A stretch of DNA of 64,000 nucleotides from Thermomicrobiales bacterium (GTDB taxonomy: Bacteria; Chloroflexota; Chloroflexia; Thermomicrobiales; UBA6265): contig JAWKPF010000004.1 in the NCBI GenBank assembly GCA_041390825.1, forward strand, positions 129,088 through 193,087, in the 5' to 3' direction. Both the position numbers and the translations under genes were made by a program. The stretch's first letter is position 1; each line of letters starts with the position of its first letter. The notes below the pieces were generated by a model that did not search any database, was not told where the DNA came from, and saw only the letters and a program-made list of their open reading frames with translations. Positions 2,031 to 34,000 of the stretch are shown piece by piece.

Positions 2031-2600
2031 ATGGCCATCGTGGGGGGAGGGGTTCTTGCGCTGGTGACGGCGTTGCTCTGCGTGCCGCCGATCCGCGCGG
2101 CCGACGCAACGCCGGCGGCGTTCGATACCGATCCAGCCAGGTGCGTTGTCGAACCGCGATCGCTGGATGACCTGGAACGCATCGTGGCGAGCGCGACGCC
2201 CGCCGTGCCAGTGGGACGCCCGCCATCCGGAGATTGGATCGACCCTTCGTCAGATTCCGGACGGGCGGCGGTCGCGACGATCGAGACGTTCTTCGCCTGC
2301 CTCAATGCCGGTGACCGGTTGCGCGCCTACGCGCTTGCCACCGATGCCTACCTGGCCACGATTCTCCAACCTGGCGATCTTCCTGCGGTTGCCACGCCGC
2401 AACCGAACGACCCGGATGAGTTGACGCGCATCATCGCCATCGAGCTGCACACCCTCGTCGATGGCGGCATCATCGCCACGGTCACGCTCGATCCCGCCCT
2501 GATCCCGGTGGACAAGATCTTCGAGTTCGTTCTCATCCCGGTCGACGACGGTTGGAAAATCGACGCGGTCATCAACGAGATCGATTTCTCGCTTCCGTAG
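2031..2600 (+). CDS. Hypothetical secreted or membrane-anchored protein
   Basis: An internal ATG at 2031 gives an N-terminal hydrophobic segment (MAIVGGGVLALVTALLCVPPIRAADA). No recognisable domain. The upstream part of the 1791 ORF overlaps livF and looks non-coding. Confidence 0.4.
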   Translation: MAIVGGGVLALVTALLCVPPIRAADATPAAFDTDPARCVVEPRSLDDLERIVASATPAVPVGRPPSGDWIDPSSDSGRAAVATIETFFACLNAGDRLRAYALATDAYLATILQPGDLPAVATPQPNDPDELTRIIAIELHTLVDGGIIATVTLDPALIPVDKIFEFVLIPVDDGWKIDAVINEIDFSLP

Positions 2601-2662
2601 CAGGCAGCACGCGGCAGGCAGCAGTTAGTAGTCAGTAGTTAGTAGTCAGTGGTCAGGGGGCA
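2600..2662. repeat. Heptad-periodic spacer, about 9 units (GCAGGCA GCACGCG GCAGGCA GCAGTTA GTAGTCA GTAGTTA GTAGTCA GTGGTCA GGGGGCA)
   Basis: Read directly. G at every 7th base and CA at unit ends. Begins at the last base of the stop codon at 2598-2600. Confidence 0.85.
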
Positions 2663-2694
2663 GGTGTGGACGTCGGTGTTGGGGGATCATTTTG

Positions 2695-2817
2695 CTGGCA
2701 ACTGGCAACTGGCAACTGGCAACTGGCAACTGGCAACTGGCAACTGGCAACTAGCGACTGACAACTGGCGACTGGCGACTGGCAACTGACTGGCGACTGG
2801 CAACTGGAGACTGACTA
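2695..2817. repeat. Tandem heptanucleotide array: CTGGCAA x8 perfect, then about 9 degenerate units (CTAGCGA, CTGACAA, CTGGCGA ...)
   Basis: Read directly. Perfect units span 2695-2750 and degenerate units run to about 2817. The array lies upstream of the cytochrome c gene. Confidence 0.95.
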
Positions 2818-2948
2818 CTCATTTCGTGCTCGTTGCGTTGACATGATTCGCGCTGCGCGGCTACCCTTCGCCGCATCGACTGGCAACGGCATCGACGCGG
2901 ATGACTGCACGGCACTGTTCCGGAATTCCGGACGCGGATGGATTCTGA

Positions 2949-3434
2949 ATGCGGAAGCGTGGCTCGGTTCTGGCACTCACGTTACTTTCAGTGCTCATTG
3001 TGGTCGTTGCCTGTGGCCGCGCCAGCGAAGAGGACATCAACAAGGCGCTTGGCATCAAGCCGACCGCCACGTTGAGCGACGAGCAGATCGCCCAGGCAAC
3101 AGAATCGGCCGAAGCGGCAGCCTCGGCGATTGCCTCTGGCGCCACTCCTGTCGAATCCGGAATGCCGGTTGGCGATGTCCGCCTCGGACAACAGCAGTTC
3201 CAGTTCCAGTGCATGCAGTGCCATCAGCCGAGCGGCGCGGGTCAGGGCCCGGCGCTCACCACGGCCGATAGCCCGGCGATCGCGCTGACCGATCAGGAAA
3301 TCTTCGACATCGTCCGCACCGGCGAGGGGCATGGCACGCAAGCCGCGGTTTCTGAAGTCCGCGTCAACGACATGCAGCTCGCCAGCATCATCGCCTATAT
3401 CCGCGACCAGATCGCCACTGCCGAGGGAAGCTAG
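2949..3434 (+). CDS. Class I c-type cytochrome, probable lipoprotein
   Basis: Lipobox-like signal MRKRGSVLALTLLSVLIVVVAC. Single heme motif CMQCH. Distal Met candidate (VRVNDMQLASI). Confidence 0.75.
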   Translation: MRKRGSVLALTLLSVLIVVVACGRASEEDINKALGIKPTATLSDEQIAQATESAEAAASAIASGATPVESGMPVGDVRLGQQQFQFQCMQCHQPSGAGQGPALTTADSPAIALTDQEIFDIVRTGEGHGTQAAVSEVRVNDMQLASIIAYIRDQIATAEGS

Positions 3435-3590
3435 TCCGTAGTCGTCAGTCTCCAGTTGTCAGTACGGTGGGTTCGGGCACTGGTGACGGGGAGCTGAGCG
3501 CAGACGGCTTCGTATACTTGCCAGAACGAGCCGGCGACGCCTGAATGCGTTGCCGGATAGGTTGCGCGCGTCGGCAGGCAGGTTCCCGGT

Positions 3591-4625
3591 TTGGTCGTTT
3601 TCCCCATCATTGCGTTCGTCGTCAGTCTCTGCTGCATGGCAGTCATCGGTCGGGACACGCTGCGTCGCCGGCGTCCGGACCGGGTCGTCTGGACGATTGC
3701 GTTCGCGATCTTTGCCATCGCGGCCGGGTCGGAGGTGGTCGGATCGCTTTCGGGATGGACTCCGGCCATCGTGCGGGTCTATTACCTGACCGGCGCGGTG
3801 CTGGTGGTCGGGTTTCTGGCGCTGGGTGAGCTCTATCTGCTGGCCGGAAACAGGATCGCCAAGTTCGCTCCGGGGGCGGCCCTGCTCGTGACTGCGCTGG
3901 CGGCGACATTGGTGATCGATGCGCCGATCGATGAATCCATGCTGGCCGAGCATGGCTGGGAAGCACTGGAGCAAAGCGCCGGGCTGACCGCCATCACCAT
4001 GCTGCTGAACATCGGCGGCAGTGTCGTGCTCATTGGCGGGGCGCTCTGGTCGGCCTGGAAGTTCAGGAAGCTCGGCACGCAGCGCCGCCGCATGATCGGG
4101 TGCATTCTCATCGCGCTTGGCACCTTCGCGGTGGCCATGGGGGGCAGTCTCACCCGGCTTGGGCAGCGCGAGTATCTCTACATCGCCATGTCGATCGGTA
4201 TCGTGATCATCTTTTTCGGTGTGTTGGAAACGCGCCGCTCCGATCAGGATCCGAGCGGTCTGCGCGCTCTGCTGGGGCTCAACCGGTCCGGCGCCGAACG
4301 GGGCAAGATCGTGCCGTTGCAGCCAGCGGGGGTTGCGCGAAACACACGCGGCAATGACGCGCAAGCGCTCGACTATGTGGTGGAGCGATTGCTGCCGCTG
4401 GACGATGCCGCCATCGATCTCGATTGCCGGGGATGGAGCGTAACGCGCCGAAAGCTGGATATGCTCGACCGCGCGCAGGCGCAACAGGTGTGGAACCTGC
4501 GGACCCGGCTCGACCCCGCTTCGCAGCATCGCCTGGACGCGATGACGCCCGCCGCGCGGCTGCAACTGGCGGAACTCTATTTCGACGTCTTCTGCTCGTC
4601 CGCCAGTATGGACACGGCGGTCTGA
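3591..4625 (+). CDS. Hypothetical integral membrane protein with a soluble C-terminal region
   Basis: TTG start. About six hydrophobic segments in the first ~200 aa, then a charged C-terminal domain. No named family recognised. Confidence 0.45.
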   Translation: MVVFPIIAFVVSLCCMAVIGRDTLRRRRPDRVVWTIAFAIFAIAAGSEVVGSLSGWTPAIVRVYYLTGAVLVVGFLALGELYLLAGNRIAKFAPGAALLVTALAATLVIDAPIDESMLAEHGWEALEQSAGLTAITMLLNIGGSVVLIGGALWSAWKFRKLGTQRRRMIGCILIALGTFAVAMGGSLTRLGQREYLYIAMSIGIVIIFFGVLETRRSDQDPSGLRALLGLNRSGAERGKIVPLQPAGVARNTRGNDAQALDYVVERLLPLDDAAIDLDCRGWSVTRRKLDMLDRAQAQQVWNLRTRLDPASQHRLDAMTPAARLQLAELYFDVFCSSASMDTAV

Positions 4626-4668
4626 GCGATGGGGTGCGGGCTGCCAGCGGTGCGAGGACGTCCCTGAG

Positions 4669-5115
4669 ATGGCAGGGGTCTTCCAGCATCCGCTCACGCT
4701 GATCGTCCTTGCCCTCTCGCTGGTCGGCACACCGATTTCCTATCGAGGCGGCGCCTCCGACGCGCATGCGCATATGTTCGTGGAGTTCATGCTGGATGCC
4801 GCCAACGGGTCGTTCGGTCATCACCATGGTTCCGCGCAGGCGGAGTCGGATGCGGATGGGCACGACCATGGCCACGACCACGCCAGCGATGTTGCCGACG
4901 CCGAGGAACGGACGCCAACCGGCCAAGAGGCTGTCGTGGCGGATGCGTTTGGCCCTTCCTTCTCCGCGTTCGTCATTGGCGATGTTGGGCAGCTTGCGTC
5001 CGTTCTCCCATTGCGCGATCCCCCTCCGATCGTGAGGCGCGCGTTCGCCGTTTCCCCGTTCGGCAGCTTTCCGACCGGGCTGACGAGCGCCCCTGCCGCC
5101 CCGCCTCCCCGATAG
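4669..5115 (+). CDS. His/Asp-rich membrane-anchored hypothetical protein (candidate metal binder)
   Basis: N-terminal hydrophobic segment, then HAHMFVEFMLDAANGSFGHHHGSAQAESDADGHDHGHDH. No strong RBS. Confidence 0.35.
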   Translation: MAGVFQHPLTLIVLALSLVGTPISYRGGASDAHAHMFVEFMLDAANGSFGHHHGSAQAESDADGHDHGHDHASDVADAEERTPTGQEAVVADAFGPSFSAFVIGDVGQLASVLPLRDPPPIVRRAFAVSPFGSFPTGLTSAPAAPPPR

Positions 5116-5227
5116 TCGTTCCTGTCCGCAGCGCGGGAACGCTGCCACTGCAATCGACTCACCGACTCGCAGCATCGTTGCCCTGCCCATCCCGGGGAGG
5201 GTTGGTTCACACCAATGGAGACCTCAC

Positions 5228-5719
5228 ATGAATCGACGTTCATTCCTGCGTTCTGGCGCCCTGTTGCTCACCGCCGGCGCTCTCCTGGCTGGCAATGGTC
5301 TCGTCTCGGCGCACGAGCACCGCGAGGTTGGCGGCTATACCTTCGTCGTTGGCTTTCTGAACGAACCCGCCGTGCAAGGCGAAGTCAACGCCGTCAGCGT
5401 GCGCATCACCAAGGCCGCCCCGGCCGACGCCACTCCGGCCGCTGGCGAGGATGAGGTTGCCGAAGTCCCAGTGGAAGGGCTGGAGCTGACCGTGGAGGTG
5501 ATCCTTGGCGATCAGAAGGTGTCTTTGCCAATGGAGCCAAAGTGGGGCGATCCGGGCCACTATGTCGCCTATCTGATTCCCACCCAGCCGGGCGACTATT
5601 CGTTCCATGTGACCGGTGAGATCGAAGGGACGGCGATCGACGAAACCTTCACTGCCGGACCGGAAACCTTCTCGTCGGTCACCCCGCGCGAGGAGCTCGA
5701 ATTCCCGGCCGCGTCCTAG
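5228..5719 (+). CDS. TAT-exported hypothetical protein whose predicted mature N-terminus starts with His (HEH)
   Basis: Twin-arginine leader MNRRSFLRSGALLLTAGALLAGNGLVSA followed by HEHREVGG. GGAG RBS upstream. Sits directly upstream of copC. Confidence 0.55.
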   Translation: MNRRSFLRSGALLLTAGALLAGNGLVSAHEHREVGGYTFVVGFLNEPAVQGEVNAVSVRITKAAPADATPAAGEDEVAEVPVEGLELTVEVILGDQKVSLPMEPKWGDPGHYVAYLIPTQPGDYSFHVTGEIEGTAIDETFTAGPETFSSVTPREELEFPAAS

Positions 5720-5777
5720 CGGCTACCATCAACGGAGACCGGGGGTCGCGTGCCCCGGTCTCCCGCGAGGAGATCGA

Positions 5778-6404
5778 ATGTATCGAAATGCCGCTTGGCT
5801 TCGCTGGTTCGGCACGCTGGTCTGTGTGCTGGCTGTTCTCGGACTGGCGCAACCCGAACAAGCGCTGGCGCACGCTGTGCCGGAACGCGCCAATCCGCCA
5901 ATGAACTCAGCGGTGCCGGTGATGCCCAGCACGGTCGAGATCTGGTTCTCCGAGGACGTGAGCGCGGAGGGCGTCTCACTGACCGTCCTGAAGCTGGACG
6001 GCACGCAGGTCGATCGGGGGAACGCCGCGCTCGATCTGACGGATCCCACGCGCACGCGGGTGACGGTCGGTGTGCATCCCGGGTTGGACAACGGCGAGTA
6101 TCTGGTGCAGTGGACCGTGGTTTCGGCAGTCGATGGCGACAGCACCAGCGGAAGCTACCAGTTCATCGTCGACCCGGCCGCCTCACCTGTGGCGCTTCCC
6201 CAGGTGGCCACCCAGCAAGCGCCTGCTCAGTTGCCAGTGATCGATGCCGAGGGCAATCCGGTCCCGCAGGACGACAACCGGTTGCTCTACGGTATCGCCG
6301 CGGCCGTCACGGGCGCGGCGTTTCTCGGGTTGCTGGCGTTCTGGTTCTTCCGGCGCCCCTCCCGCGGGCGGCGCTGGAGCGACCGGCCGGTCGATCGCCT
6401 ATGA
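5778..6404 (+). CDS. copC: CopC-family periplasmic copper-binding protein with a C-terminal membrane anchor
   Basis: Signal peptide ending ALA followed by HAVPERANP. CopC-like strands (VEIWFSEDV, GEYLVQWTVVSAVDGDSTSGSYQF). C-terminal TM segment. GAGGAG RBS before ATG 5778. Confidence 0.8.
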   Translation: MYRNAAWLRWFGTLVCVLAVLGLAQPEQALAHAVPERANPPMNSAVPVMPSTVEIWFSEDVSAEGVSLTVLKLDGTQVDRGNAALDLTDPTRTRVTVGVHPGLDNGEYLVQWTVVSAVDGDSTSGSYQFIVDPAASPVALPQVATQQAPAQLPVIDAEGNPVPQDDNRLLYGIAAAVTGAAFLGLLAFWFFRRPSRGRRWSDRPVDRL

Positions 6405-8686
6405 GCCGCGCAATCGATTTCTCTGCGGCGACGGCTCGCCATGAGTGGCGCCGCCACGGAGCGGGGCTGTTCCTGCTGCTCGTGCTGCTGGCCGCGTTGC
6501 TGCCGGTGGAAACGTCGGCGCATGCCGCGTTCGATCGGAGCGATCCCCAGCCGAACACCATTCTGGCCGAGTCACCGGCGGAGATCCGCATCTGGTTCAC
6601 CGAACCGCTGGAAGCGGGCTACAACGAGGTGCGGGTCTTCGACCAGACTGGGCACGAGATTCCCAATCTGACGGTCGGGCCGGGTGACGGCGAGAAGTCG
6701 CTGGTTGCCACGTTGCCAGAACCATTGGTGAACGGCACTTATACCGTCGTCTGGCGGAACCTCTCCACGGCCGACGGCCACCCCGCGCAGGGGTATTTCA
6801 CCTTCACCGTGGGCACCCAGGCCGATGTCGCCTCGGTCACCATGCCCGTCATGGACGATTCCGCCGGCGCTCCGCTCTGGTTGCAATCGGCCGCGCGCTG
6901 GCTGGTGCTGCTGGCGCTGGCGGCAGCGATTGCGGTTTGGCCGGTCTGGTTGCTGGTGCTCTGGCCAGCCACCCGGCATGACGGCGCGCTCACCGCGGAA
7001 CTCGCCCAACGCGCCCAGACGTTGGGAACCGGCGCAGTGATCGGCGCGTTGCTGGCCAATCTGCTGGCGCTCGGTGTGCAAGCGACCAATCTGGACGGCG
7101 GATCGTTGCTTTCCCGGATCGGCGAGACCGTTTCCGATACCCGGTACGGCCGACTCTGGCTGGCGCGGGTCGGACTCTTGCTATTGATGGGCGTCGCGCT
7201 CCGATTTCTTCCCTGGCGCGATCCGATTCGACAATGGCCATCGACGGCGATCGGGCTGGTCATTGCGGCCCTCTTGCCGTTGCCGGTCAGCATGAACGCT
7301 CACGCGGCCGCGCTGGATGCAGGGCGCACCACTGCCATCGTCTTCGACTACGCGCACACTCTGAGCGCGTCGGTCTGGTTCGGCGGGTTGATCCTGCTGG
7401 GCGGGGTGCTGATCCGCGCATTGCGCGGCCAGATCGATCGCCGCGCGGTGTTGGCTCAGGCGCTGCCGCGGTTCTCCGCTATGGCGCTGGTCTGCTGGGG
7501 ATTGCTGGCGATCACCGGTCTCTACGCCTGGTGGCTCCAGGTGGGAAGCTGGGCGGCTCTGCGGGAGACGCAGTACGGCCAGTCGCTGCTGTTCAAACTG
7601 ATTCTGGTGGGGATCGTCTTCCTGATCGCTGGTCTGAATCTGTTGGTCATCACCCGCAAACTGGCGCGGGTCGATGCCATGGCGCAACCGCGCTGGTTCG
7701 GGCGCCTCGGGTATGCGGTGCTGGCCGAACTGGTGTTGACCACGCTCCTCCTGCTGGCGGTCGGCCGGATGACCAGTCTGCAACCGGCGCGCGATGTGCT
7801 GGCGGCCGAGCAATCCGGCCAGACGGTGCAATTCGATCTCGAGGGGCGCGATGTCACCCTGCAGATCGCGCCCGCCGCAGCCGGCCCGAATCACTTTCTG
7901 GTCACCATTCCGGGCGATCCGGCGCCGGATGGCACGGAGGCGCTCATCCGCTTCACCTATACCGGTGAGGATTTTGGCGTCAAGGAGGTCGAACTCGACC
8001 GTTCCGGACCAGCCACCTACGAAACCCATGGCAGCGAAATGGGCATTGCTGGCGAATGGGAACTCGAGCTCATCGTGCGGGAAATTGGGGAGTTCTCGTG
8101 GAGTGACACGCAGGTCATTTCCATTGGCGCCACCGGATCGGCTGCGCCGACACCGCCATGGCGTTTCGGCACTGGGGGCGCGATCGGGCTGCTGTTGCTT
8201 GGGATCGCGCTGGTCGGGTTCGTGGTCGCCTGGAGAGCTGGACGATCCCGCTTCCGCATGGAGAGCGCGGGACTGGCCGCTATTGCGACCGTGCTGGGGT
8301 TGATGCTCATGGCGCAGGCGCGCATCCAGCCAACGGTGGGATTCGATCCGGGGCTGACCAATCCCGTTGCCGCGACGAGTGGTTCGGTCACCCTGGGGCA
8401 GGAGCTCTATACGGCCAACTGTCTGGCCTGTCATGGCGCGGCTGGAGAAGGAGACGGTCCGGGAGGGGAAAACATGTTCCCGAAACCGGCCGATTTCACC
8501 GCCGCGCACACCAAGGTGCATCCAGACGGTCAGCTCTATGACTGGATCAAGAATGGCAAGGACGGCACCGAGATGCCGGCCTTCCCCCAGTTGACCGATG
8601 AGCAGATCTGGAACCTGATCAATTACCTCCAGGTCGAGTTCCAGGGGAAACCGATGGTCGAGGGAACACCGACCCCGGTGGAGTAG
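6401..8686 (+). CDS. Fusion protein: CopC domain, CopD-type polytopic membrane domain, YtkA/FixH-like beta domain (tentative), and a C-terminal c-type cytochrome domain
   Basis: ATGA overlap with the copC stop. TSA|HAAFDRSDP plus RIWFTEPL and TYTVVWRNLSTADGHPAQGYFTF (CopC). About 8 TM segments (CopD). CLACH heme motif at nt 8420-8434, followed by TEMPAF. Confidence 0.8.
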   Translation: MSRAIDFSAATARHEWRRHGAGLFLLLVLLAALLPVETSAHAAFDRSDPQPNTILAESPAEIRIWFTEPLEAGYNEVRVFDQTGHEIPNLTVGPGDGEKSLVATLPEPLVNGTYTVVWRNLSTADGHPAQGYFTFTVGTQADVASVTMPVMDDSAGAPLWLQSAARWLVLLALAAAIAVWPVWLLVLWPATRHDGALTAELAQRAQTLGTGAVIGALLANLLALGVQATNLDGGSLLSRIGETVSDTRYGRLWLARVGLLLLMGVALRFLPWRDPIRQWPSTAIGLVIAALLPLPVSMNAHAAALDAGRTTAIVFDYAHTLSASVWFGGLILLGGVLIRALRGQIDRRAVLAQALPRFSAMALVCWGLLAITGLYAWWLQVGSWAALRETQYGQSLLFKLILVGIVFLIAGLNLLVITRKLARVDAMAQPRWFGRLGYAVLAELVLTTLLLLAVGRMTSLQPARDVLAAEQSGQTVQFDLEGRDVTLQIAPAAAGPNHFLVTIPGDPAPDGTEALIRFTYTGEDFGVKEVELDRSGPATYETHGSEMGIAGEWELELIVREIGEFSWSDTQVISIGATGSAAPTPPWRFGTGGAIGLLLLGIALVGFVVAWRAGRSRFRMESAGLAAIATVLGLMLMAQARIQPTVGFDPGLTNPVAATSGSVTLGQELYTANCLACHGAAGEGDGPGGENMFPKPADFTAAHTKVHPDGQLYDWIKNGKDGTEMPAFPQLTDEQIWNLINYLQVEFQGKPMVEGTPTPVE

Positions 8687-8766
8687 TTCCCTGTTCCGGA
8701 GCCTTCATGACGGTCGTTGCCGTTCGATCCATGCGTCGTCGCGGGCCGCAGTGCCTGTCAGGGGTG

Positions 8767-8862
8767 TCCAAGAGCAGGCACAGAGGCCTGCGGCTACGCG
8801 GGGATGGGCGGGTGGTTGGCATGTACCTCCAAGAGCAGGCACAGAGGCCTGCGGCTACGCGG
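8767..8862. repeat. Two identical 35-nt direct repeats (TCCAAGAGCAGGCACAGAGGCCTGCGGCTACGCGG) 61 bp apart, each holding a GCAGGC/GCCTGC hairpin
   Basis: Copies at 8767-8801 and 8828-8862, read directly. The locus sits between convergent genes. Confidence 0.9.
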
Positions 8863-9346
8863 CCACCACGGTTCCCGATTCGTCCAGCACCCAGACGGTG
8901 ATCGATTCCGCAGGGTCGACGGTGCAGGCGATATCGAATTTCCCCGGGTTCGGGAACCGCTGGGTGTAGGTTTGCCCTGGGAGCACGACGAACGGTCCGG
9001 CCCGTAGCGGCACCGAATCCTCATTGGTGACCGAGATCGCGGCTTCGTCGCCCGGTTGGAAGGTGATCTCCGTTGGCAGGGTGATGGCGGACTTCATGGT
9101 GTCGTTGTTCACTGCCGCGCCCGCGCCCTTTGGGATGACGAACGAGAGCCCGACCGGCTCATCGCCGCCGTTCCAGCGGTCGCTGAAGAGCGCCGCCACC
9201 AGGAGCGCCAATCCGCCGCCACCTACGACAACCGTGGTCAGGAGCTGCCGCCGCGACATTTTCTTGTCCGGGTTGGCGACCGGGGTGTTCTCGGTCGCGT
9301 CGTCTGTCGTCGTTGCTGATTCGTCGATCTCGTTGTGCGTATCCAT
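8855..9346 (-). CDS. Membrane-anchored hypothetical protein with a small beta-rich (cupredoxin-like?) ectodomain
   Basis: GGGGAG RBS before ATG. One TM (LLTTVVVGGGGLALLVAALF). Last gene of the minus-strand Sco/PCuAC operon. The fold call is tentative. Confidence 0.5.
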   Translation of the reverse strand: MDTHNEIDESATTTDDATENTPVANPDKKMSRRQLLTTVVVGGGGLALLVAALFSDRWNGGDEPVGLSFVIPKGAGAAVNNDTMKSAITLPTEITFQPGDEAAISVTNEDSVPLRAGPFVVLPGQTYTQRFPNPGKFDIACTVDPAESITVWVLDESGTVVAA

Positions 9347-9420
9347 GTGTCACTACTCCCCGGCCCTGTGCCCGTCGTGTCGCCAGGTGCGGCGGCACGA
9401 CGGGCAACTCGCTGGTTCGA

Positions 9421-10011
9421 CTACATCGTGGGCGAAGCTGCTGGCGAGGCTGCCGGAGTGGCATCCATCGCCATGGCCGGAGCGGGCCGCGACCAGACGC
9501 CCGAGATGGTCAGGTCACCAGCTTCGGTCGAAACGATCGCATCGCCCTCGGGCGCCGCGCTCTGCACAGTCACCGGCACGACGACCTCGCCGGCGCGCTC
9601 GAAGGTGAGCGTCAGGTCGAAGGTGTCGCCCGCGTTCAGATCGTGCTTCAGGCCGATGAGCATGATGTGGAATCCGCCTGGTTCGAGAGCAACGGTTTCA
9701 CCGGCGGGAATCTCGAGCCCATCGGTGAGCGGACGCATTTCCATGACGCCGTTGTTGTCGGCAATTTCATGAATCTCGACCACAGCCGACACGTCGGCTG
9801 CCGCGGCGATCAGGCGGTCGGCTTCGGAGCCGCCATTCTCGACGTGGAAATAGGCTGCCCCCGTGCCGCCCATGGCGTGACCGGACATTCCGCCGGCCAT
9901 GGGGGATGCCTCGGGAGTCGCGTCGTCATGCGCGGCGGCGATGCCGCCGAAACCAATCAATCCAATTGCCAGAGCCGCCAGGGCCAGCATGCGCAGTGCA
10001 ATTCGGTTCAT
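9421..10011 (-). CDS. PCu(A)C-type periplasmic copper chaperone (DUF461 family)
   Basis: Signal peptide. Met/His-rich N-terminus (PMAGGMSGHAMGG). Family motifs MEMRPL and PGGFHIMLIGL. GGAG RBS. Confidence 0.8.
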   Translation of the reverse strand: MNRIALRMLALAALAIGLIGFGGIAAAHDDATPEASPMAGGMSGHAMGGTGAAYFHVENGGSEADRLIAAAADVSAVVEIHEIADNNGVMEMRPLTDGLEIPAGETVALEPGGFHIMLIGLKHDLNAGDTFDLTLTFERAGEVVVPVTVQSAAPEGDAIVSTEAGDLTISGVWSRPAPAMAMDATPAASPAASPTM

Positions 10012-10044
10012 TTCTTTGCTCCTTTTTTCGGTTTCTGTGACGAG

Positions 10045-10668
10045 TTATTCGGAAATCAGGTGTTGCACGTCTTCCGTGATCATCGCGGGGTCGGTGCCGT
10101 AGGGATAGGTCAGCCGGAGCTTGCCCTCCTTGTCGATGACGTAGATCAGGGCGGTGTGATCGATCAGATAGCCGGTCGAGGAGTTGGGATACTCGACCCG
10201 CTTGATCGTGACGCCGTAGTCCTTCAGGAACTGCTCGGTCTGCGCGTCGTCGCCACGCAATCCAATGAAGTCCGGATCGAAGAAGTTCAGGTACTCCTGC
10301 ATGCGGGCTTGCGTGTCGCGCTCGGGATCGAACGTGACCATGATGAATTCGACTTCATCGGCTTCGTCGCCCAGGTCTTCCTTCACGATGGCGAAGTCGT
10401 TCAGCGTGGTTGGGCAGAGATCGGGGCAGGTGGTGTAGCCGAAGTAGATCAGCGCGACCTTTCCCTCTTCTTGCGCCAGCGAGTACGGCTCGCCATGCTG
10501 GTCGGTTAGCGCCAGGTCCGGGGCAGTGGCCGCGGGACTGATCTCGCCACCGTTGAACTCGTACGCCTCGGTGCGGTTCGTGGCCCAATAGATGACGCCC
10601 CCGGCAATGAGCACCAATAGGGCAAGCACTCCGAGGAGTTGGTAGCGGCGGTTGGACGATGTCGTCAT
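10045..10668 (-). CDS. SCO1/SenC-family copper chaperone / thiol-disulfide oxidoreductase
   Basis: N-terminal TM. CxxxC motif YFGYTTCPDLCP and a downstream conserved His (DHTALIYVIDKEG). AGGAG RBS. Confidence 0.9.
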   Translation of the reverse strand: MTTSSNRRYQLLGVLALLVLIAGGVIYWATNRTEAYEFNGGEISPAATAPDLALTDQHGEPYSLAQEEGKVALIYFGYTTCPDLCPTTLNDFAIVKEDLGDEADEVEFIMVTFDPERDTQARMQEYLNFFDPDFIGLRGDDAQTEQFLKDYGVTIKRVEYPNSSTGYLIDHTALIYVIDKEGKLRLTYPYGTDPAMITEDVQHLISE

Positions 10669-10689
10669 GGTGGTTCTCCTCCGGGCGCC

Positions 10690-11961
10690 CTAGAACGGCG
10701 ACCAGGTTGCGTATTCGTTCAGGCGGCTCAGCGAATCGGTGAGCAAGAGCGCGGCGATGAGCAGGATCAGGACTCCGCTGACCTGTTGCATGCGGGGGAG
10801 CCATGCCCGGAACCGGGACGATTCCGCCATGAACTTGTCCACGAGCACAGTTGCCAGCAGGAATGGAACGGCCAGACCCAGCGAGTAGATCGCCAGCAGG
10901 CCGGTGCCCTCGCGCACGGTCGCGTCCGCGGCTGCGATGGTGAGAATGCTGGCCAGCGCCGGGCCGATGCAGGGGGTCCAGCCCGCTCCGAACGCCACCC
11001 CGATCAGGAAGGTTCCGGCGCGTCCGTATGAGCGGCCGCCCAGATCCATCTTGACGGTGCGGTCGGCGAACGGGAGGCGCAACAATCCGAGCAGGTGCAG
11101 CCCCAGGATTGCCAGAAAGACGCCCCCGACGCGCGCGATCCAGATGCGGTACTCCTGCAACCAACCCCCGAGCGCCGTGGCGGAGGCTCCAAAGAGCATA
11201 AAGACCGTGGTGAAGCCAAGCACGAAGAGGAGCCCGTTGATGGCCGTGGCGCGGCGCGCGCGGCGCTTGACCTCCCGATCGGTGGAGCGGAGCTCGGCGA
11301 AGCTCATGCCGCTGATCACCGCCGCGTAGGTGGGAATCAGCGGAAAGACGCAGGGCGAAAGAAAGCTGAGCAATCCTGCCGCGAACGCTACCGGAATGCC
11401 CACCCGCGCCACGGTCGAGGTCACCTGGCTGGCATCGGTGACCGTGCCTGCCAGAGCATCCTCGATCAGCGTCAGGTCGTCCGCGTTCTCTTCGACCAGC
11501 GCGCCTTTCCACCGATAGAGGATTTCACCGTCCCGCCCGATCAGCAGGGTTTCCGGCACGCCAGTTGTTTCGAAGGCGCGCGCGAAACGATTGGAGGAGT
11601 CGCGCCAGACGGGGAAGGTGACGCCGTGGTCCTCAGCGAATGCCTGGACCGCGTCGTCCTGTCCGTTGCGGTCGATGCTCACCCCGACGACCTGCAACCC
11701 CTGATCGGCGTACCGATCACTGAGGGCCTGCAACCAGGGCATCTCCTCTTTGCAGGGAGTGCACCAGGTGGCCCAGGTGTTCAGCAGCACAACATCACCC
11801 TGCAGGTCTTGCAGCGAGACGGTGTCGCCGGTGGCGAGGTCGGTGGCCTCGAATTCGGGTGCGGTGGTGGCCGAGACGTTGCCAGTCAGCAGGAGCAGGG
11901 TAAGCAGTCCCAGCCCGAGCAAGACCAACGCGCGCGGTCCGCGAAGCGTAAAGCGATGCAT
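10690..11961 (-). CDS. Fusion of a TlpA/ResA-like thioredoxin domain with a CcdA/DsbD-type transmembrane electron-transfer domain
   Basis: Thioredoxin motif WATWCTPC in the N-terminal half. CcdA motif SFLSPCVFPLIP and a second Cys in GWTPCIGP within about 6 TM segments. Confidence 0.85.
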   Translation of the reverse strand: MHRFTLRGPRALVLLGLGLLTLLLLTGNVSATTAPEFEATDLATGDTVSLQDLQGDVVLLNTWATWCTPCKEEMPWLQALSDRYADQGLQVVGVSIDRNGQDDAVQAFAEDHGVTFPVWRDSSNRFARAFETTGVPETLLIGRDGEILYRWKGALVEENADDLTLIEDALAGTVTDASQVTSTVARVGIPVAFAAGLLSFLSPCVFPLIPTYAAVISGMSFAELRSTDREVKRRARRATAINGLLFVLGFTTVFMLFGASATALGGWLQEYRIWIARVGGVFLAILGLHLLGLLRLPFADRTVKMDLGGRSYGRAGTFLIGVAFGAGWTPCIGPALASILTIAAADATVREGTGLLAIYSLGLAVPFLLATVLVDKFMAESSRFRAWLPRMQQVSGVLILLIAALLLTDSLSRLNEYATWSPF

Positions 11962-12097
11962 GTTCTTCGATCCTGTTGTTCGATCAGACGGTCACCGCGC
12001 GTAGATGCGGAGATGCCCGGCTACGCTCCGGCCCGATGGGCAGAACGGACGGTGACCGAGGAACCGGCACACAGTGTGCGGCTCCAGGCAGCGAGGA

Positions 12098-12589
12098 TCA
12101 GGCTGCTTTGGGGGGTGGCGAATCGGGAGGAATGGCGATACCAGTCAGCATCGCAGCCGGAGGGTTGACCTGCAGCAATGGATCTCCGTCCATTTGCAGC
12201 AGCGCTTCGATGTCCGGAGGCACTGGCGTGGCTGGCAAATCGAGCGCCGCGCCGACTGGTTGTTGCGATTGCGCATCGGCGCCGTCGGCCAGCATGAACT
12301 GGCAGAGCAGGTGCGATGCATCGGCCGAATCGGCATCGGAGGCGGAAGTTGGCGCACCATGATGGTGATGCCCAGTCATCGAGCCGGATTCGCTGGAGGC
12401 AGCGGCCGCATGCTGATGCCCGCTCATGCGCTCCATGTTCATGCCGGTGGGATCGACAAAGATCGAGTGCGGCGCGGTGGAGGCGTCACAGCGTACAGGA
12501 ATGAAGGCAAAGGAGACGATCAGCAGAATCGTCACCAGACGGATGCCCCATACGCGGTATTCGGTTGGCTTGCTGTTGCGCATTGCCAT
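12098..12589 (-). CDS. His-rich membrane-anchored hypothetical protein (candidate metal binder)
   Basis: ATG 12589 or 12583 preceded by GAAGG. One TM (IRLVTILLIVSFAFIPV), then MSGHQHAAAASSESGSMTGHHHHG ... CQFMLADG. Confidence 0.4.
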   Translation of the reverse strand: MAMRNSKPTEYRVWGIRLVTILLIVSFAFIPVRCDASTAPHSIFVDPTGMNMERMSGHQHAAAASSESGSMTGHHHHGAPTSASDADSADASHLLCQFMLADGADAQSQQPVGAALDLPATPVPPDIEALLQMDGDPLLQVNPPAAMLTGIAIPPDSPPPKAA

Positions 12590-12881
12590 TGCCTTCGGGT
12601 ACTCGGGTCGATCCCGATGTCCCTGCTGACAAGTATCCCAAACTCTGAGCGCGCAACCAATCGAAAATGGGGTCTCCGCGGCACATTGGCACGATTCTGT
12701 AACGTCTTCCGGCGCGCGCATGGTCGTGCGTATCATGCCCGGATGGCCGAGCAACATGCTCGCGAACGCTCTGGGAGCGATCAGGCAACTGTCAGGATCT
12801 CATCCACTGCTACCATTTGGGATGGGCAGACGGTGCAGCAGGCAGCGCGAACCAGCGCGTTGCCAGGCAGGAGACCCTTCG

Positions 12882-14012
12882 ATGGATCCAGACCGGTTCG
12901 ATTCGCTTGCCAAGCGGCTTGGGGGGCGGATTTCGCGGCGCGCGTTCGTTGGCGCAGCAGCCGCAACGATGTTGGCGGTTCCGGCCGTTCCCTATCGCAG
13001 CACGGTGCTTGCACAAAGCGAACGGACCACGGCGATCGACCGCTATATCGCCGTCCGCACCTTCGCCTATGACAGCACGCGCGAGAAGGCCGAAGCCGAA
13101 CTGCCCGATCTGGTTGCGCACATGGAGGAGCAGCCGGGATTCGTTGGTATCGAGTGTGTCTGGGGCGAGACCGAGATCTATCTGATCGTTACGTTCCTCG
13201 ATGAGGCAACCTCGGTTCCGGGAATGGAAACGATCGACTGGTGGATCGAAACCCACATTCAGTCGACGCTCTATGGCGACTTCGAACAGTCCGAGGGGAA
13301 GGTCGTACTCCGCTCGTTTCTCTTTGCGGGATGCCCGTGCGATCTGGAGGATGACGACGACCCGTGCGGTTCCGATCTGCTGGTGTGCTGCCCGGTTTCC
13401 GAGAGCGAGGGAGAGCCTGGTGTTTGCCTGACCGCGGAAACCACCTGCCCGGCCGGCGGCGGAGCGGATGACGATCCCAGCGATGAAGAACTGACGCTCT
13501 CGGCAGGCGATCTCACCCCCATTGCCGGCGCGGCGGTCTCCTGCACGAGTGAAGGATGCGACTGCCCAGACGGTATCTGTGACGCCGGGCTGGCTTGCTG
13601 CACATCCACCGGTACCTGCCAATACACCTGCCCATGCGGATATGAAGGCTGTTACTGCGTCGGCAGTGTCGTGAATACCTGCGACGACGGTCTGATCTGC
13701 TGCGCTCCAGGTGAGATCGGCGGCGAAGGGACGTGCCAGTATTCGTGCTCCTGCAGCTATGAGGGATGCTCGTGCACGACCGGGGTCGATGGCGCTTGCG
13801 ACGCTGGACTTTCGTGCTGCGGCATCTTCAGCTCCGACCCCGGCAATATCGGCGCCTGTCTCAGTAGCTGCTCCAATGGCTCGACCAACCCATGCCCCGG
13901 CGCAGACGGCTGCGAGTGCATTCCCGGCACTTCGTGGATCTGCAACGCCGGTCTCGTTTGCTGCGGCGCCGAGGCTGGCGAATCCGGCATCTGCGCAAGT
14001 TCGTGCGCCTGA
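12882..14012 (+). CDS. TAT-leader protein with an ABM/Dabb-like alpha+beta domain (tentative) and C-terminal hyper-cysteine repeat modules (paralog 1)
   Basis: ATG 12882 after GGAG. Leader MDPDRFDSLAKRLGGRISRRAFVGAAAATMLAV. Four modules of type GCxCx(5-7)C[DN]xGLxCC...GxC plus one N-terminal variant. Confidence 0.7.
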   Translation: MDPDRFDSLAKRLGGRISRRAFVGAAAATMLAVPAVPYRSTVLAQSERTTAIDRYIAVRTFAYDSTREKAEAELPDLVAHMEEQPGFVGIECVWGETEIYLIVTFLDEATSVPGMETIDWWIETHIQSTLYGDFEQSEGKVVLRSFLFAGCPCDLEDDDDPCGSDLLVCCPVSESEGEPGVCLTAETTCPAGGGADDDPSDEELTLSAGDLTPIAGAAVSCTSEGCDCPDGICDAGLACCTSTGTCQYTCPCGYEGCYCVGSVVNTCDDGLICCAPGEIGGEGTCQYSCSCSYEGCSCTTGVDGACDAGLSCCGIFSSDPGNIGACLSSCSNGSTNPCPGADGCECIPGTSWICNAGLVCCGAEAGESGICASSCA

Positions 14013-14233
14013 ACGCAATCGACGAGAACCGATCGTGCCGGTAGCAGGAACCATTTCGGTCTGGACTGCGTTGTAGGATTGGTGTTCACTGGTACGTACC
14101 AGTTATGCGCGATCCGTGGCAACATGCACGGGTATTGTGCGCGGCTGGTAGCATGGGTGATGGTCCAGGCAGGGTGCAGGGACCATATTGGCACCACTAT
14201 CAATTCCCCCGTGAGGGCAGAGGAGGAACGCGC

Positions 14234-15490
14234 GTGGATCCGAACCGATTCGACTCGTTCGCCAAGAAGCTGGGTAGCCGGCTTTCTCGCCGCGACATGA
14301 TGCGTGTCAGCGCCGCCACGGCCGTGGGCGCCATCGCTGTCAGCAAGTTCACCAGCGTGGCTGCTCAGGATGCGGGCACCACGGCCAAGGATCGCTTCAT
14401 CTCGGTGCGCACGTATGCGTACAGCGGCACCGAGGCGGATGCGGCTTCCGGACTGAGCGGCATCATCGCCGTTATGGAGCAGCAGCCAGGCTTTATCGAA
14501 TACAACCTCGTCTTCGGCGATGGGCAGATCCTGGCAATCTCGACGTTCCTCGATGAGACCACGGCGGTGGCCGCGGCGCAGCAGGAAGATGCCTGGATCA
14601 GCGCCAATGCCGCCAATATCCTGAGCGGCTCGCCGACGATTCAGAGTGGCGATGTCTTCCTCCGCTCCGAGCTGCACGCTGGTTGCGGTTGCATCACCGG
14701 AACGGAGGATCCCTGCCACTCCTCACGCCTCACCTGCTGTGCTACGACCGACCGCATGGGCGGCCCGGGTATCTGCCTTACCAACGAAACGACTTGCCCG
14801 GGCGCGATGCCGGCTGAACCGACCGCGACTGCGGCGCCAGATGAGCCGACCGCAGTTCCGGCATGCACGGGCGAAGGCTGCGCCTGCAACGGCGGCGTCC
14901 AGAACGCCTGCGACGATGGACTGGTCTGCTGCGGTGTGACCGAGCCCGGTGGCCCCGGCACCTGCGAGACGGAATCCGAATGCAATCCGACTTGCTCCAG
15001 CGAGGGCTGCACCTGTATCGGTGGCACCGAAGGCGCCTGCGATGATGGTCTTGTTTGCTGCGGCTCGAACCAGCCGGGCGGCTCCGGCCACTGCATGACC
15101 GAGGATGAGTGCAACCCGCCGTGCACCAGCGACGGATGCACTTGCACCGCCGGCACCCAGGGCGCCTGCGACGACGGTCTCGAATGCTGCGGCGCGGACA
15201 CGCCGGGCGGTCAGGGCACCTGCATGGCTTCGTGCCCCTGCACCGGCGACGGATGCGCGTGCACCACTGGCACCGATGGCAATTGCGATGACGGACTCGT
15301 CTGCTGCGCAGCCGACATGACCACTCCGGGTTCCCCGGGCACCTGCATGGCGGTCTGCGATTCCAGCGATTGCAACGGTCAGGAGAACTGCCCCTGCACT
15401 GCCGGCACCGAGGGCGCCTGCAACGATGGTCTCGAGTGCTGCGGCGCCGATACCCCGGGTGGACAGGGCACCTGCCAGAGCAGCTGCTAG
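14234..15490 (+). CDS. TAT-leader protein with an ABM/Dabb-like domain (tentative) and five hyper-cysteine repeat modules (paralog 2)
   Basis: GTG 14234 after GAGGAGG. Leader VDPNRFDSFAKKLGSRLSRRDMMRVSAATAVGAIAV. Five ACDDGL[VE]CC-type modules. I count 47 Cys in the C-terminal region. Confidence 0.7.
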   Translation: MDPNRFDSFAKKLGSRLSRRDMMRVSAATAVGAIAVSKFTSVAAQDAGTTAKDRFISVRTYAYSGTEADAASGLSGIIAVMEQQPGFIEYNLVFGDGQILAISTFLDETTAVAAAQQEDAWISANAANILSGSPTIQSGDVFLRSELHAGCGCITGTEDPCHSSRLTCCATTDRMGGPGICLTNETTCPGAMPAEPTATAAPDEPTAVPACTGEGCACNGGVQNACDDGLVCCGVTEPGGPGTCETESECNPTCSSEGCTCIGGTEGACDDGLVCCGSNQPGGSGHCMTEDECNPPCTSDGCTCTAGTQGACDDGLECCGADTPGGQGTCMASCPCTGDGCACTTGTDGNCDDGLVCCAADMTTPGSPGTCMAVCDSSDCNGQENCPCTAGTEGACNDGLECCGADTPGGQGTCQSSC

Positions 15491-15511
15491 TCGCTCAGTC
15501 CTGATGCGCAA

Positions 15512-31047: not shown

Positions 31048-34000
31048 CTATTCGTCAGCGGTCTCCTCGGGGATGATGTACGCGTTGCATGACAGCGTCT
31101 CGCCACCGATGAGCACGACCCCGATCTGCCCATCCGGACTCAGATAGGTGAGCGGATCGAAGAGCGGCTCCTGATCGAGATCGCGCTGATTGCTGGCGCA
31201 CGATGCGATAAACGCGGCTGCGGTCTCCTCGGGGAGCGATTCGGTCAGCAGCCATGGACCAGGTTTCAGCCCGGAGAAGGTCGCGACGCCGTCGTCGTCC
31301 GTGGTGTCGATTTCGACCGGTGCGACCTGAGCAGTCTCGCCGGCAAGGGCGAGCAGCGAGACCTCGATGCCGGGCGCCGGTTCGTCACAATCCTCTTGCA
31401 GATCGGACTCGGGGCCGTAAACGTCGTAGCCTTCCGGGCAGACGTACGTCGTGAGGATGAGGGTTGCCGGAGCGGTCGGATTCGGCGTGGCGATTGGAGC
31501 CGGGGTAGGCGGCTTACCCGTGCCCGGCGTGGGAGTCGGCGACGGATGATCTGGCGGGGCCAGGTTGAACCAGTAGCACTCCAATGCGTCACCGGGCGCG
31601 ACGTGCCGCTCGATGGCGAACTGCGTCACCGGCGCCGATTCGAATGCGGCCTGCTGGCTGCCCGACGTTTGAACCGCGCAGAAGACGACGGCGCTTGTGT
31701 AGCCAGCCGGTGGTGTCTCGCTGATGAACAGCGGGCCGGGCGCGACCTCTTCCCAGGCGACGCTGCCGGTCGCGTCCGTGGTCTTTGTGAGCTCGGTGGC
31801 GGGACCGCCGAGCGTGAACGAGACGCCTTCCAGCGGGGTCGAGCATTTGGTCAGCAGGGCCTGATCCGAGTCGCTGTGCGGAGGCAGATATCCCGCGGGA
31901 CAGGCGTACTTGTGGATGGTGACGGTTGCGGGCGTCGTCTCGATATTGAACCAGAAGCAACCGATGACGGTGTCTGGCGTGGCCGGGTACTCGATCGTCC
32001 CATTCGAGATTTCCAGATCGAGGTACTCAGTCGGGTCGGCGGTGGAACCGGCCGGAGCGTGCCCGCAGAAGACGCGGACCGGCTGATAGTCGGACGCCAG
32101 CTCCGTGATCAGGATTGGTCCGGGCGGCACGTCGGTGAACAAGGCATACCCGGTTGTGCCGATTGGCAGGGTGGAATCGTAAGCGGCCGCTTCATTGCGC
32201 ACCTGGAACTCCACTCCATCGATGGGGGTGCAGGCGCCGTTCAGATCGAGCTGGCTGGCATGCTGGTAGTCATAGTCAGCCGGGCAGACGCTCTTGTACA
32301 CGTAGATGTCGACCGGAGGCGCCTCGACCGCAGCCCAATAGCAGGTGATAACCGAGTGTGGCTCGGCTGGATAGGCCACCCCTTCGTCGGTAATCGTGAG
32401 CGAGGTGTAGCTGCTGGGCGATTCCCCCACCATGGCCTGTCCGCAGTTGACCGCGACGGTTTGGTACTTCGGTGACAGTTCCGAGATGCGGAGCGGCGAC
32501 GGAGGCAGCTCCTCGAAGGAGACCGTGCCTTCCTTGCCGGTTGGCAAGGTGACATCCAGCGCATCCGGGGAGGGCTCGGTGCCCGACGTGTTTCCTGCCT
32601 GCACGCGGAACGGGACGCCGGCGGGCGTTTCCGAGCATTCGGCACGTATCCGGTCGTTGGTGAGATCGGCGAGACTGATGGTCGGCGGGCAGACGCGCAT
32701 CGTGATGGCGACCTGGGCAGGCTCGACGTAGGGAACATCGAACCAATAGCATTCCAGGGTGTATCCCCCGGACAGATAGGCATAGAGCGGCTCGGCGTTG
32801 TACCGCGCGAGGCTGTCGGGTTCTCCGGCCGTGCCTGGGTAGTAGTCACACCAGGCGGCCAACGGGCGGAAGCCGTTACCAGCGACCTGTTGGATCTCGT
32901 TGAAACCAGGACTCAGGTTGGTGAACGACACGTTTCCGATAGCATCGGTCACGGCCTCGGCTGGTGTCGTGAGCGGAGCTCCAGCAGTGAAGGCAACGCC
33001 TTCGGCCCGGGGAGCGCAATCGTCCACGAGGGCTTCGGCCGACTTGTACGCGTCGGTCCCTTCCGGGCAGGTGTAGGTGTGCAGCGTGACCGTGGCGGGA
33101 TCGGTCGAGGTTGCGCCAGCGGGCATATTCGCCCAGACGCATTCCAGGAAATAGCCGTCTTTCAACTCGGATGGCACGCTCCAGTTCTCGACGGTTACGG
33201 GGTCCAGGCTGCCAGTCGCTCCGGCTCCCACGAGCGTAAAGCGGCAGAACACCTTGGGCGGATCGTAGCCCTCACGCGGGAGTTCCGAGATGCGGAAGAT
33301 GCCTGGCGGGATGTCGGCGAACCGCGCAATGCCGTCTGCGCCGGTAATCGCGCTGATGGTCGTCTCTCCGTATGCGATCTTGAACTCGACACCGGGTTCG
33401 GAGGAGCAGTACATCGCGATTTCGATGTAGTTCGAACTGATTGCCGAAAAGCCCGGTGGGCAGATTCGCTTGTCCACATAGACCGATCCGGCCTTTGGCG
33501 GGCTGTCCGCCTTTCCAGTTGGGACGTTGAAGAAGTGGCACTCGATCACCTTGCCGTCTTCGATGGTCGCCGCGATGCCGCCATCGGCTACGGTCTGCTC
33601 GGCATAGACGTCTGTCAGGGCGAGGGCAGGCAGCCCGACATCGGTGGTCCTGCAGAGGGCGCGTTGCAACTCCTCGCCAGCAGTGCCCGGTTCGCCGATG
33701 CCCACGTTGCCGGGCGGTAATCCTTCGAATCTGGCAATTGCGGGGCCCTTTTCGAGGCGGGTCAAAGCGGTGAACGGCGCGCCGGTGGGGTAGTAGACCG
33801 CGATAACGACGCCTTCTTGCGGTGTCGGGCAGGCCACGCGAAGTTCTTCGTATGACTTGCCGGATGGATCGAAATCATCTGGGCAGCGCCACTTGAGAAT
33901 CGTGACGTGGCCGCCATCGTCCGCTGCCTTCCCCGTCGTTGCCATAGGAACTGTGAACCACTCGCAGGAATAGACGAGGGACGGATCGACATCCGAAAGC

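Follow-up and report, generated by a model that had tools for sequence, protein, structure and literature searches.

The closest described system is YcnJ of Bacillus subtilis, a protein that supports heme-copper oxidases (PMC13344008, PMC12362106) and with which YcnI exchanges Cu(II) via an N-terminal histidine site (PMC12362106). In about 4% of proteobacterial CopD sequences, as in that of Methylosinus trichosporium OB3b, the protein also has a cytochrome cbb3 and a Sco1-like domain; these proteins were described in 2025 as an architecture only, with no function assigned (PMC11923076). A 2026 study associated no reductase with B. subtilis YcnJ (PMC13344008), and a 2020 review gives CcoG as the only specific bacterial cupric reductase (PMC7558416). 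The conversion of Cu(II), captured outside by CopC-type proteins, into the Cu(I) of chaperones and pumps is thus an acknowledged gap in bacteria. Here we analyse a 64,000-nucleotide stretch of DNA (the window; contig JAWKPF010000004.1, positions 129,088 to 193,087) from a soil bacterium of the order Thermomicrobiales, in which a single gene joins a CopC-CopD core to a c-type cytochrome domain predicted to lie on the same side of the membrane.

The gene was found at 6401-8686 on the forward strand of the window, as an uninterrupted open reading frame (ORF) of 761 codons followed by a stop in translation. Its parts are given below, with residue numbers of the product (aa) and transmembrane helices abbreviated as TM.

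6401..8686, forward strand, stop codon included (product 6401-8683): whole fusion gene, 761 aa, CopC-CopD-YtkA-like-2TM-cytochrome c.
6401..6520, forward strand, aa 1-40: signal peptide, with a hydrophobic segment at 16-44 and predicted cleavage between TSA and H41.
6521..6811, forward strand, aa 41-137: CopC domain, PF04234, E=1.8e-20, 74.1 bits against a cut-off of 23.3.
6875..7780, forward strand, aa 159-460: CopD domain with 8 TM helices, PF05425 at 353-454, E=3.3e-16, 60 bits against a cut-off of 32.1.
7784..8164, forward strand, aa 462-588: beta-sandwich, divergent YtkA/FixH-like and predicted extracytoplasmic, with 8 strands (474-576) in the AlphaFold2 model.
8165..8329, forward strand, aa 589-643: TM9-TM10 hairpin, the tether of the cytochrome, with helices at 591-613 and 617-639 and a basic loop, RAGRSRFR, predicted cytoplasmic.
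8378..8635, forward strand, aa 660-745: monoheme class I cytochrome c domain, PF00034, E=1.2e-14, and PF13442, E=1.6e-13.

A first-pass annotation, made from the nucleotide letters alone, had proposed one 761-codon gene with the domain order CopC, CopD, sandwich, two TM helices and cytochrome c. The intact ORF, the Pfam matches above their cut-offs and the helix prediction agree with that order, and the two further helices were recovered both by hydropathy and in the AlphaFold2 model. The histidine that it had placed at the mature N-terminus of CopC (HAAF, after TSA) belongs to an A40-H41-A42 segment that is kept in alignments of relatives, which supports the cleavage site. The CopC domain contains the histidine-brace ligands H41 and D125-G-H127, predicted from sequence to bind metal, and its fold matched CopC and PcoC structures as well as the CopC domain of YcnJ (9c14) in Foldseek, with TM-scores up to 0.92.

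In the CopD domain, His301 (nucleotides 7301-7303) and His319 (7355-7357) sit at the outward ends of helices 4 and 5, at a distance of 18 residues, and correspond to H135 and H154 of YebZ, which are needed for copper uptake (PMC11923076). The NCBIfam CopD model (NF033808) aligned with residues 163-463 at 91.6 bits, under its 195-bit equivalog cut-off; by this score the domain is a member of the family and not an equivalog of plasmid-type CopD. A search of PDB sequences with the CopD region gave no match.

The cytochrome domain aligned with Cytochrom_C at 664-744 (55.8 bits, cut-off 21.3) and with Cytochrome_CBB3 (51.2 bits, cut-off 27). The first-pass annotation had recognized its two landmarks, and both were located precisely: the heme motif CLACH at residues 674-678 (nucleotides 8420-8434), providing the C674-C677-H678 site at which heme is expected to be attached, and the axial Met725 (8573-8575) within GTEMPAF (722-728). 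H703 and H707 are conserved as well. Among solved proteins, 6h5l_B and T. paradoxus c552 are closest to the domain; subunit II of a caa3 oxidase (2yev_B, E=2.6e-5) and nitrite reductases (for example 3ziy, about 7e-3) match its sequence weakly, yet significantly, and the domain also resembles CcoP. The fusion showed no match to an iron-sulfur (Fe-S) family in Pfam or NCBIfam and no cysteine-cluster motif visible in its translation, and Pfam revealed no Sco1/thioredoxin-like domain in the 761 residues. Beyond the YtkA-like domain, the product continues for 173 residues, comprising the two helices and the cytochrome c domain.

To place these domains relative to the membrane, a full-length AlphaFold2 model was compared with hydropathy. 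The model has a mean predicted local distance difference test score (pLDDT) of 87.7 and a predicted template-modelling score (pTM) of 0.83. Both approaches yielded a signal peptide, a CopC sandwich, eight CopD helices, an eight-stranded sandwich, two helices and a helical cytochrome domain, and by charge counts the loops predicted to be inside, including the TM9-TM10 loop, are the most positive. CopC, the middle sandwich and cytochrome c are all predicted to face outward, because the N-terminus is exported, the helix count is even at both junctions, with ten helices after the signal peptide, and the inside loops are the most positively charged. A cytoplasmic position of the CxxCH domain, which would have undermined the first-pass annotation, is not what helix count and charge bias predict. 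Attachment of c-type heme occurs only at the membrane's outer face, and the TM9-TM10 hairpin, which is required for the heme to sit there, is itself conserved in relatives.

Relatives of the fusion were collected by a word-indexed search (253 found, 120 listed) and by an exhaustive search of 50%-identity representatives (150 proteins listed, 145 of them new). A CxxCH motif was present in 115 of the 120 listed relatives, nearly all of which contain CopC, CopD and cytochrome c, and exactly one CxxCH was present in 118 of the 145 new representatives, where most of the listed alignments extend through query residue ~744. These relatives reach down to 31% identity. At 90% identity, over 100 clusters show the uninterrupted architecture, and contigs of 390 kb and 1.18 Mb are among those that encode such relatives. 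Neither a frameshift nor a hidden stop, either of which would split off the cytochrome, was found in the window gene. The fusion is a real, conserved family and not an artefact, since the frame is continuous and the same architecture occurs in many relatives.

Every relative that bears an organism name comes from a Thermomicrobiales, Sphaerobacteraceae, Chloroflexia or Chloroflexota metagenome-assembled genome (MAG); of 20 distant relatives looked up, 4 carried an organism name, all Thermomicrobiales or Chloroflexota. The distribution survey called for by the first-pass annotation thus returned a conserved family whose named members belong to this lineage. The sources annotate the relatives in general terms: 'copper resistance protein CopC', 'CopD family protein', 'c-type cytochrome' or 'copper transport protein'. 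The best database relative of the 761-residue product is 76% identical to it, while the adjoining partner protein (5228-5719) is present at 100%, and one near-identical contig (L028) stops 228 nucleotides into the fusion gene.

Conservation was assessed in an alignment of 112 diverse CxxCH-bearing relatives. C674, C677, H678 and M725 are invariant (112 of 112), and within the same domain H703 is kept in 93% and H707 in 98%. The invariance of CxxCH and Met725 down to 31% identity points to selection on the heme site. Among the ligands of the CopC brace, H41 is conserved in 87%, D125 in 97% and H127 in 88% of the sequences, and CopD H301 and H319 are each present in 107 (96%). These conserved CopC and CopD copper residues match ones that are essential in YcnJ and YebZ (PMC13344008, PMC11923076).

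The middle sandwich is less readily assigned. For query region 462-588 the best Pfam score was FixH at E=0.01, with no threshold passed, and in the middle domains of 30 close relatives FixH was touched in 8 and YtkA in 1, all below threshold. Five distant full-length relatives (P0358, P0342, P0352, P0383 and P0372) did pass YtkA (PF13115) at the middle position, with 30.9-44.6 bits against 25.9. A hidden Markov model (HMM) built from bona fide YtkA domains matched the middle domain of many distant full-length relatives, with E down to 1e-16, and hhalign of the close relatives' middle domain against bona fide YtkA gave a probability of 77.7% (E=1.9e-5, 85 columns). The matches in relatives and the profile-profile comparison support, by transitive homology, the tentative YtkA/FixH assignment of the first-pass annotation: the sandwich appears to be a divergent YtkA domain, and the fusion to be the YcnJ architecture (CopC-CopD-YtkA) extended by a hairpin and cytochrome c. 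In some long relatives, YtkA/FixH matches that could be taken for the middle domain were discarded, as they fall in an extra domain after the cytochrome. His498 and His543 of the middle domain are kept in the close subclade.

The cytochrome behaves as the variable part of the protein. CxxCH is missing from about 20 otherwise full-length relatives. Two of these heme-less relatives were checked and are complete genes within long contigs; no split form, in which a cytochrome gene of its own would follow the CopCD gene, was found beside them. Another, P0260, carries a YtkA domain exactly at the position of the cytochrome, and other heme-less relatives carry a C-terminal domain without family assignment. 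Relatives of ~940 residues have a 170-residue domain without family assignment after the cytochrome, and some add YtkA too, so that bona fide YtkA domains stand either directly after the cytochrome or in its place. The extra C-terminal ~170 residues (P0047, P0054, P0072, P0093, P0116) contain a conserved Cys pair and the motifs ACSNARD, DNPxxHxH and RWLIDE; the domain has no Pfam match and is not in the window protein.

From these sequences, the family can be described as a constant CopC-CopD-YtkA-like-hairpin core with an outward C-terminal slot that is empty or holds a copper chaperone, a cytochrome, or a cytochrome plus more. The YtkA domain of B. subtilis YcnJ serves CuA assembly and not import, and is redundant with CtaK for CuA of cytochrome c oxidase (PMC13344008). 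That a YtkA chaperone shares the position of the cytochrome ties the C-terminal module to the extracellular handling of copper, which by this analogy is probably the role of the slot. Since YtkA replaces the cytochrome in some relatives, and its B. subtilis counterpart serves CuA assembly, the heme may likewise help to metallate oxidases outside the cell, and not act in import as such.

We tentatively favour the reading, rated a little short of even, that the fusion is a YcnJ-type copper acquisition protein whose heme relays electrons to Cu(II). In this scheme, the outward CopC would capture Cu(II) via its histidine brace and hand the copper to the conserved histidine pair at the outward opening of the eight-helix CopD channel. 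The two-helix hairpin, added in this lineage, would bring the chain back outside, bearing the monoheme class I cytochrome c. The heme would receive an electron from the respiratory chain, for instance from a membrane-anchored cytochrome c like that encoded at 2949-3434, and pass it to Cu(II) at the outer copper sites of the fusion, forming Cu(I). The Cu(I) could then pass through CopD, or go to the adjoining Cu(I) chaperones PCuAC and Sco, which build the copper centres of heme-copper oxidases. An import-coupled reduction of Cu(II) to Cu(I) would be plausible and fits the outward-facing topology. It draws support from tethered class I cytochromes that supply copper centres in caa3 oxidases and cytochrome-fused nitrite reductases, from the heme proteins with which eukaryotes reduce external Cu(II) ahead of uptake (PMC7558416), and from the CopD-cytochrome proteins of Proteobacteria (PMC11923076). 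Heme attachment, electron flow, its direction and the destination of the copper are the parts that we infer, from the architecture, topology, conservation and neighbourhood found here.

The genes surrounding the fusion are the following.

2949..3434, forward strand: candidate redox partner, a monoheme cytochrome c whose signal resembles that of a lipoprotein (VVAC); PF13442 and PF00034 both exceed their cut-offs.
3591-4625, forward strand: polytopic membrane protein, 344 aa; its match to the 7TM region of histidine kinases is weak and below threshold.
4669..5115, forward strand: small protein rich in His (HAHMF, GHHHGS, DGHDHGHDH), with a single hydrophobic segment; found in many loci upstream of the partner gene.
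5228..5719, forward strand: partner gene, encoding a secreted immunoglobulin (Ig)-like protein of 163 residues with a twin-arginine-like signal and the mature N-terminus His-Glu-His-Arg.
5778..6404, forward strand: upstream membrane-anchored CopC paralogue, PF04234, E=5.9e-16.
8855-9346, reverse strand: membrane-anchored 163-residue protein without family match; adjoins PCuAC and is conserved with it in L004 and L005.
9421..10011, reverse strand: PCuAC copper(I) chaperone, PF04314, E=2.1e-34.
10045..10668, reverse strand: Sco1/SenC copper chaperone or thiol-disulfide protein, PF02630, E=1e-40.
10690..11961, reverse strand: TlpA/ResA-like thioredoxin fused to CcdA (AhpC-TSA/Redoxin and DsbD_TM), a reductant for cytochrome c and CuA maturation.

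The neighbourhood was compared across 20 genome loci, recovered via two peptide patterns from 24 close sequences. In 15 of the 20, the gene immediately upstream of the fusion is the partner gene, and it holds the same place at L021 3-599, L024 4442-4936, L025 4345-4839 and L026 7283-7948, including loci of distant and heme-less relatives. The family comprises 365 homologues, and each one that bears a name is called 'hypothetical'; the window protein is 100% identical to one labelled as from a Thermomicrobiales MAG. Neither the query nor 43 homologues tested matched Pfam or NCBIfam, no DUF1775 match was obtained, and a profile search of PDB sequences was empty. A28, H29, E30 and R32 are invariant, giving a mature N-terminus of His-Glu-x-Arg, and a distant member (L023 7399-7944) lacks the N-terminal His. 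The predicted structure (pLDDT 87) is Ig-like, with generic weak structural matches that include the copper proteins CrdA and HftA. By analogy, the partner is possibly a new copper-binding family in the role of YcnI.

The stand-alone CopC upstream of the fusion had been described in the first-pass annotation as translationally coupled to it. The coupling holds: the stop TGA at 6402-6404 overlaps the fusion ATG at 6401-6403 (ATGA), and genes called independently on a contig of another assembly, 97.8% identical, show the same 4-nucleotide overlap. As a CopC the protein is atypical: the second brace His is replaced in six of six sequences (DG followed by D, A or S), Gln or Glu stands in place of the N-terminal His in two, and there is a membrane anchor. 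Two Met are conserved (PPMNxAVPVMP), as are a C-terminal membrane helix and a cytoplasmic tail, FRRxxRGRRWSDRPVDRL. Judged by these residues, the protein is not a canonical Cu(II) binder, and might bind Cu(I) rather than Cu(II). It is confined to the closer relatives L001-L005.

Conservation of the other forward-strand genes is uneven. The stand-alone cytochrome c (2949-3434) is conserved in L001, L002 and L005 only, and the 3591-4625 protein in L001-L005, between the cytochrome c gene and the copper genes. The His-rich protein (4669-5115) has no Pfam match; tblastn matched it in L001-L003, L007, L008, L011 and L012, and similar ORFs occur at L024 3950-4375 and L026 5977-6474. The neighbourhood, with PCuAC, Sco and TlpA-CcdA on the opposite strand, amounts to the classical set of tools for assembling CuA/CuB and maturing cytochrome c (PMC9145763). 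A promoter and terminator scan of 2400-12400 remained at chance level, and in window 12000-15500 the long ORFs on both strands (200-460 aa) had no Pfam match at E<=0.001. Further away, two heme-synthesis genes, for a ferrochelatase and a protoporphyrinogen-oxidase-like flavoprotein, lie ~30 kb from the copper/cytochrome cluster, at 36557-37705 and 41486-43045 on the forward strand. A 1768-residue ORF at 31048-36354 on the reverse strand has SpaA/prealbumin-like and SdrD B-like repeats and probably encodes a large surface protein.

Several points weigh against a heme that relays electrons to copper. The sequence does not reveal which way electrons flow. Because CopC holds Cu(II) very tightly, its reduction by a typical c-type heme could be uphill without a strong coupled Cu(I) acceptor. 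The heme-less relatives all retain H41, D125, H127, H301 and H319; with every copper ligand kept, the heme is dispensable for the core function and the cytochrome an accessory module. Oxidase structural genes were not found among the window ORFs scanned. Two candidate copper sites were also rejected: H703-x3-H707-x-D709 on the heme domain, as the same pair is present in the soluble T. paradoxus c552, and a family-wide site at H498/H543 in the middle domain, as this pair is not conserved across the 112 diverse relatives.

Among the alternatives, the one that survives best, although in our estimate unlikely, is that the cytochrome c domain recognizes a CuA-bearing oxidase subunit II (or bc or alternative complex III, ACIII) and so holds a copper-delivery machine beside the oxidase, electron transfer being secondary or absent. 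The replacement or accompaniment of the cytochrome in relatives by YtkA, a chaperone linked to CuA in B. subtilis, is consistent with such docking, as are the PCuAC, Sco and TlpA neighbours, which indicate oxidase assembly, and the resemblance of the domain to oxidase-docking cytochromes such as CcoP and caa3 subunit II (2yev_B). The strict invariance of the axial ligands, however, argues for a working redox centre and not a mere binding surface, and the lack of oxidase genes among the scanned ORFs of the window counts against docking too.

Electrons might also run in the reverse direction, the heme oxidizing Cu(I) to Cu(II) for capture by CopC or for detoxification and passing the electron on to a terminal oxidase. 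We regard this as improbable. The topology and conservation that suggest an electron relay would suit it equally, the tight binding of Cu(II) by CopC would make oxidation thermodynamically easier than reduction, and relatives are annotated 'copper resistance protein', in name only. Against this, the CopC-CopD proteins that have been studied act in uptake and not in resistance (PMC13344008, PMC11923076), the neighbouring PCuAC and Sco require a supply of copper, PCuAC taking Cu(I), and no multicopper oxidase or efflux gene was found in the cluster by Pfam.

A third possibility, decidedly improbable in our view, dispenses with coupling altogether: the domain would be an ordinary respiratory cytochrome c, anchored by fusion to a membrane protein, as in cytochrome cy, and independent of copper. 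The domain is indeed a generic class I cytochrome, and bacteria that lack an outer membrane commonly have cytochromes c tethered to the membrane. Yet over 100 clusters at 50% identity have retained the fusion, Proteobacteria are reported to have CopD-cytochrome proteins as well, and cytochrome and copper-chaperone domains share one position.

The heme could instead act as a redox sensor or gate, its redox state reporting on the respiratory chain and modulating copper transport with no electrons going to copper. An accessory cytochrome, missing from otherwise complete relatives, and a tight two-helix hairpin packed beside CopD, whose arrangement the pTM suggests to be fixed, would both suit a gate. 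This idea nevertheless leaves the YtkA chaperone at the same position unexplained, and a class I cytochrome c is not known to gate any transporter; we consider it very doubtful. That a frameshift or misassembly merged a separate cytochrome c gene with a CopCD gene can be given practically no weight: the exact 761-aa product is missing from the gene-position collection, but the rival is refuted by the continuous frame, the fusions on long contigs and in more than 100 further clusters, and a conserved TM9-TM10 linker hairpin without which the heme would not be outside.

The constituent families of the fusion are all known, its core is YcnJ-like, and the idea of a CopD-cytochrome c protein is in print for Proteobacteria (PMC11923076); the fusion itself would not astonish a specialist. 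In the searchable literature, we found no description of the CopC-CopD-YtkA-hairpin-cytochrome arrangement or its breadth in Thermomicrobiales, nor of the interchange of cytochrome and YtkA at one position or of the partner family. A stronger claim, which we hold possible but doubtful, is that the fusion family is the first bacterial copper importer with a built-in outward heme reductase, providing the Cu(II)-to-Cu(I) step still missing from CopCD/YcnJ-type uptake and from the loading of Cu(I) chaperones in oxidase assembly, together with an N-terminal-His partner as a new copper-binding family. With copper sites and a candidate electron donor in one polypeptide, on the same side of the membrane, the gap in bacterial copper reduction becomes directly testable, and the heme-less and copper-chaperone-swapped relatives provide natural controls within the family. 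If the heme serves only docking or is unrelated to copper, the analysis still describes a large unannotated Thermomicrobiales family and an unnamed partner protein.

Among known systems, YcnJ and the fusion are alike in an outward CopC with a histidine brace, an eight-helix CopD with a His pair and an outward sandwich, in the fusion apparently of YtkA type, and both are encoded next to a small secreted partner with an N-terminal His, the partner gene of the fusion sitting where ycnI does. YcnJ ends after YtkA, whereas the fusion continues with two helices and cytochrome c; its middle domain is too divergent to pass Pfam YtkA alone, its partner is not YcnI/DUF1775 by sequence, and no YcnK-like regulator was seen. 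The proteobacterial CopD-cytochrome proteins share with the fusion a CopD joined to a cbb3-type (PF13442) cytochrome c domain. They have a C-terminal Sco1/thioredoxin-like domain, while here Sco is a separate opposite-strand gene (10045-10668), and the fusion, which belongs to a different phylum, has an N-terminal CopC and a YtkA-like sandwich instead. Lacking a Sco-like domain, it falls outside the proteobacterial CopD-cytochrome-Sco class. The YobA-YebZ-YebY (AZY) system of E. coli likewise combines a CopC-type Cu(II) binder with a CopD importer bearing two outer His, but as separate polypeptides with no heme or YtkA domain, and YebY is absent from the window system.

A class I cytochrome c and a copper site in one polypeptide, as a built-in electron donor, are also found in caa3 subunit II (2yev_B) and in cytochrome-fused copper nitrite reductases (3ziy); in those enzymes, copper forms a fixed centre for catalysis or electron transfer, whereas the copper sites of the fusion are transient transporter or chaperone sites. 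CcoG of Rhodobacter capsulatus is comparable by functional analogy only, as an oxidase-assembly-linked membrane protein that converts Cu(II) to Cu(I) (PMC7558416). It contains two 4Fe-4S clusters and reduces Cu(II) in the cytosol (PMC7558416), in contrast to the fusion, with its outward c-type heme and no Fe-S motifs. The eukaryotic Fre, Steap and Dcytb proteins resemble it in logic, as they use heme to reduce Cu(II) on the cell's outside before it is imported (PMC7558416), and differ in having unrelated folds, b-type hemes, a cytoplasmic electron donor and no physical link to the transporter. Should the heme of the fusion prove to be a reductase, it would be a bacterial counterpart of this eukaryotic 'reduce outside, then import' logic.

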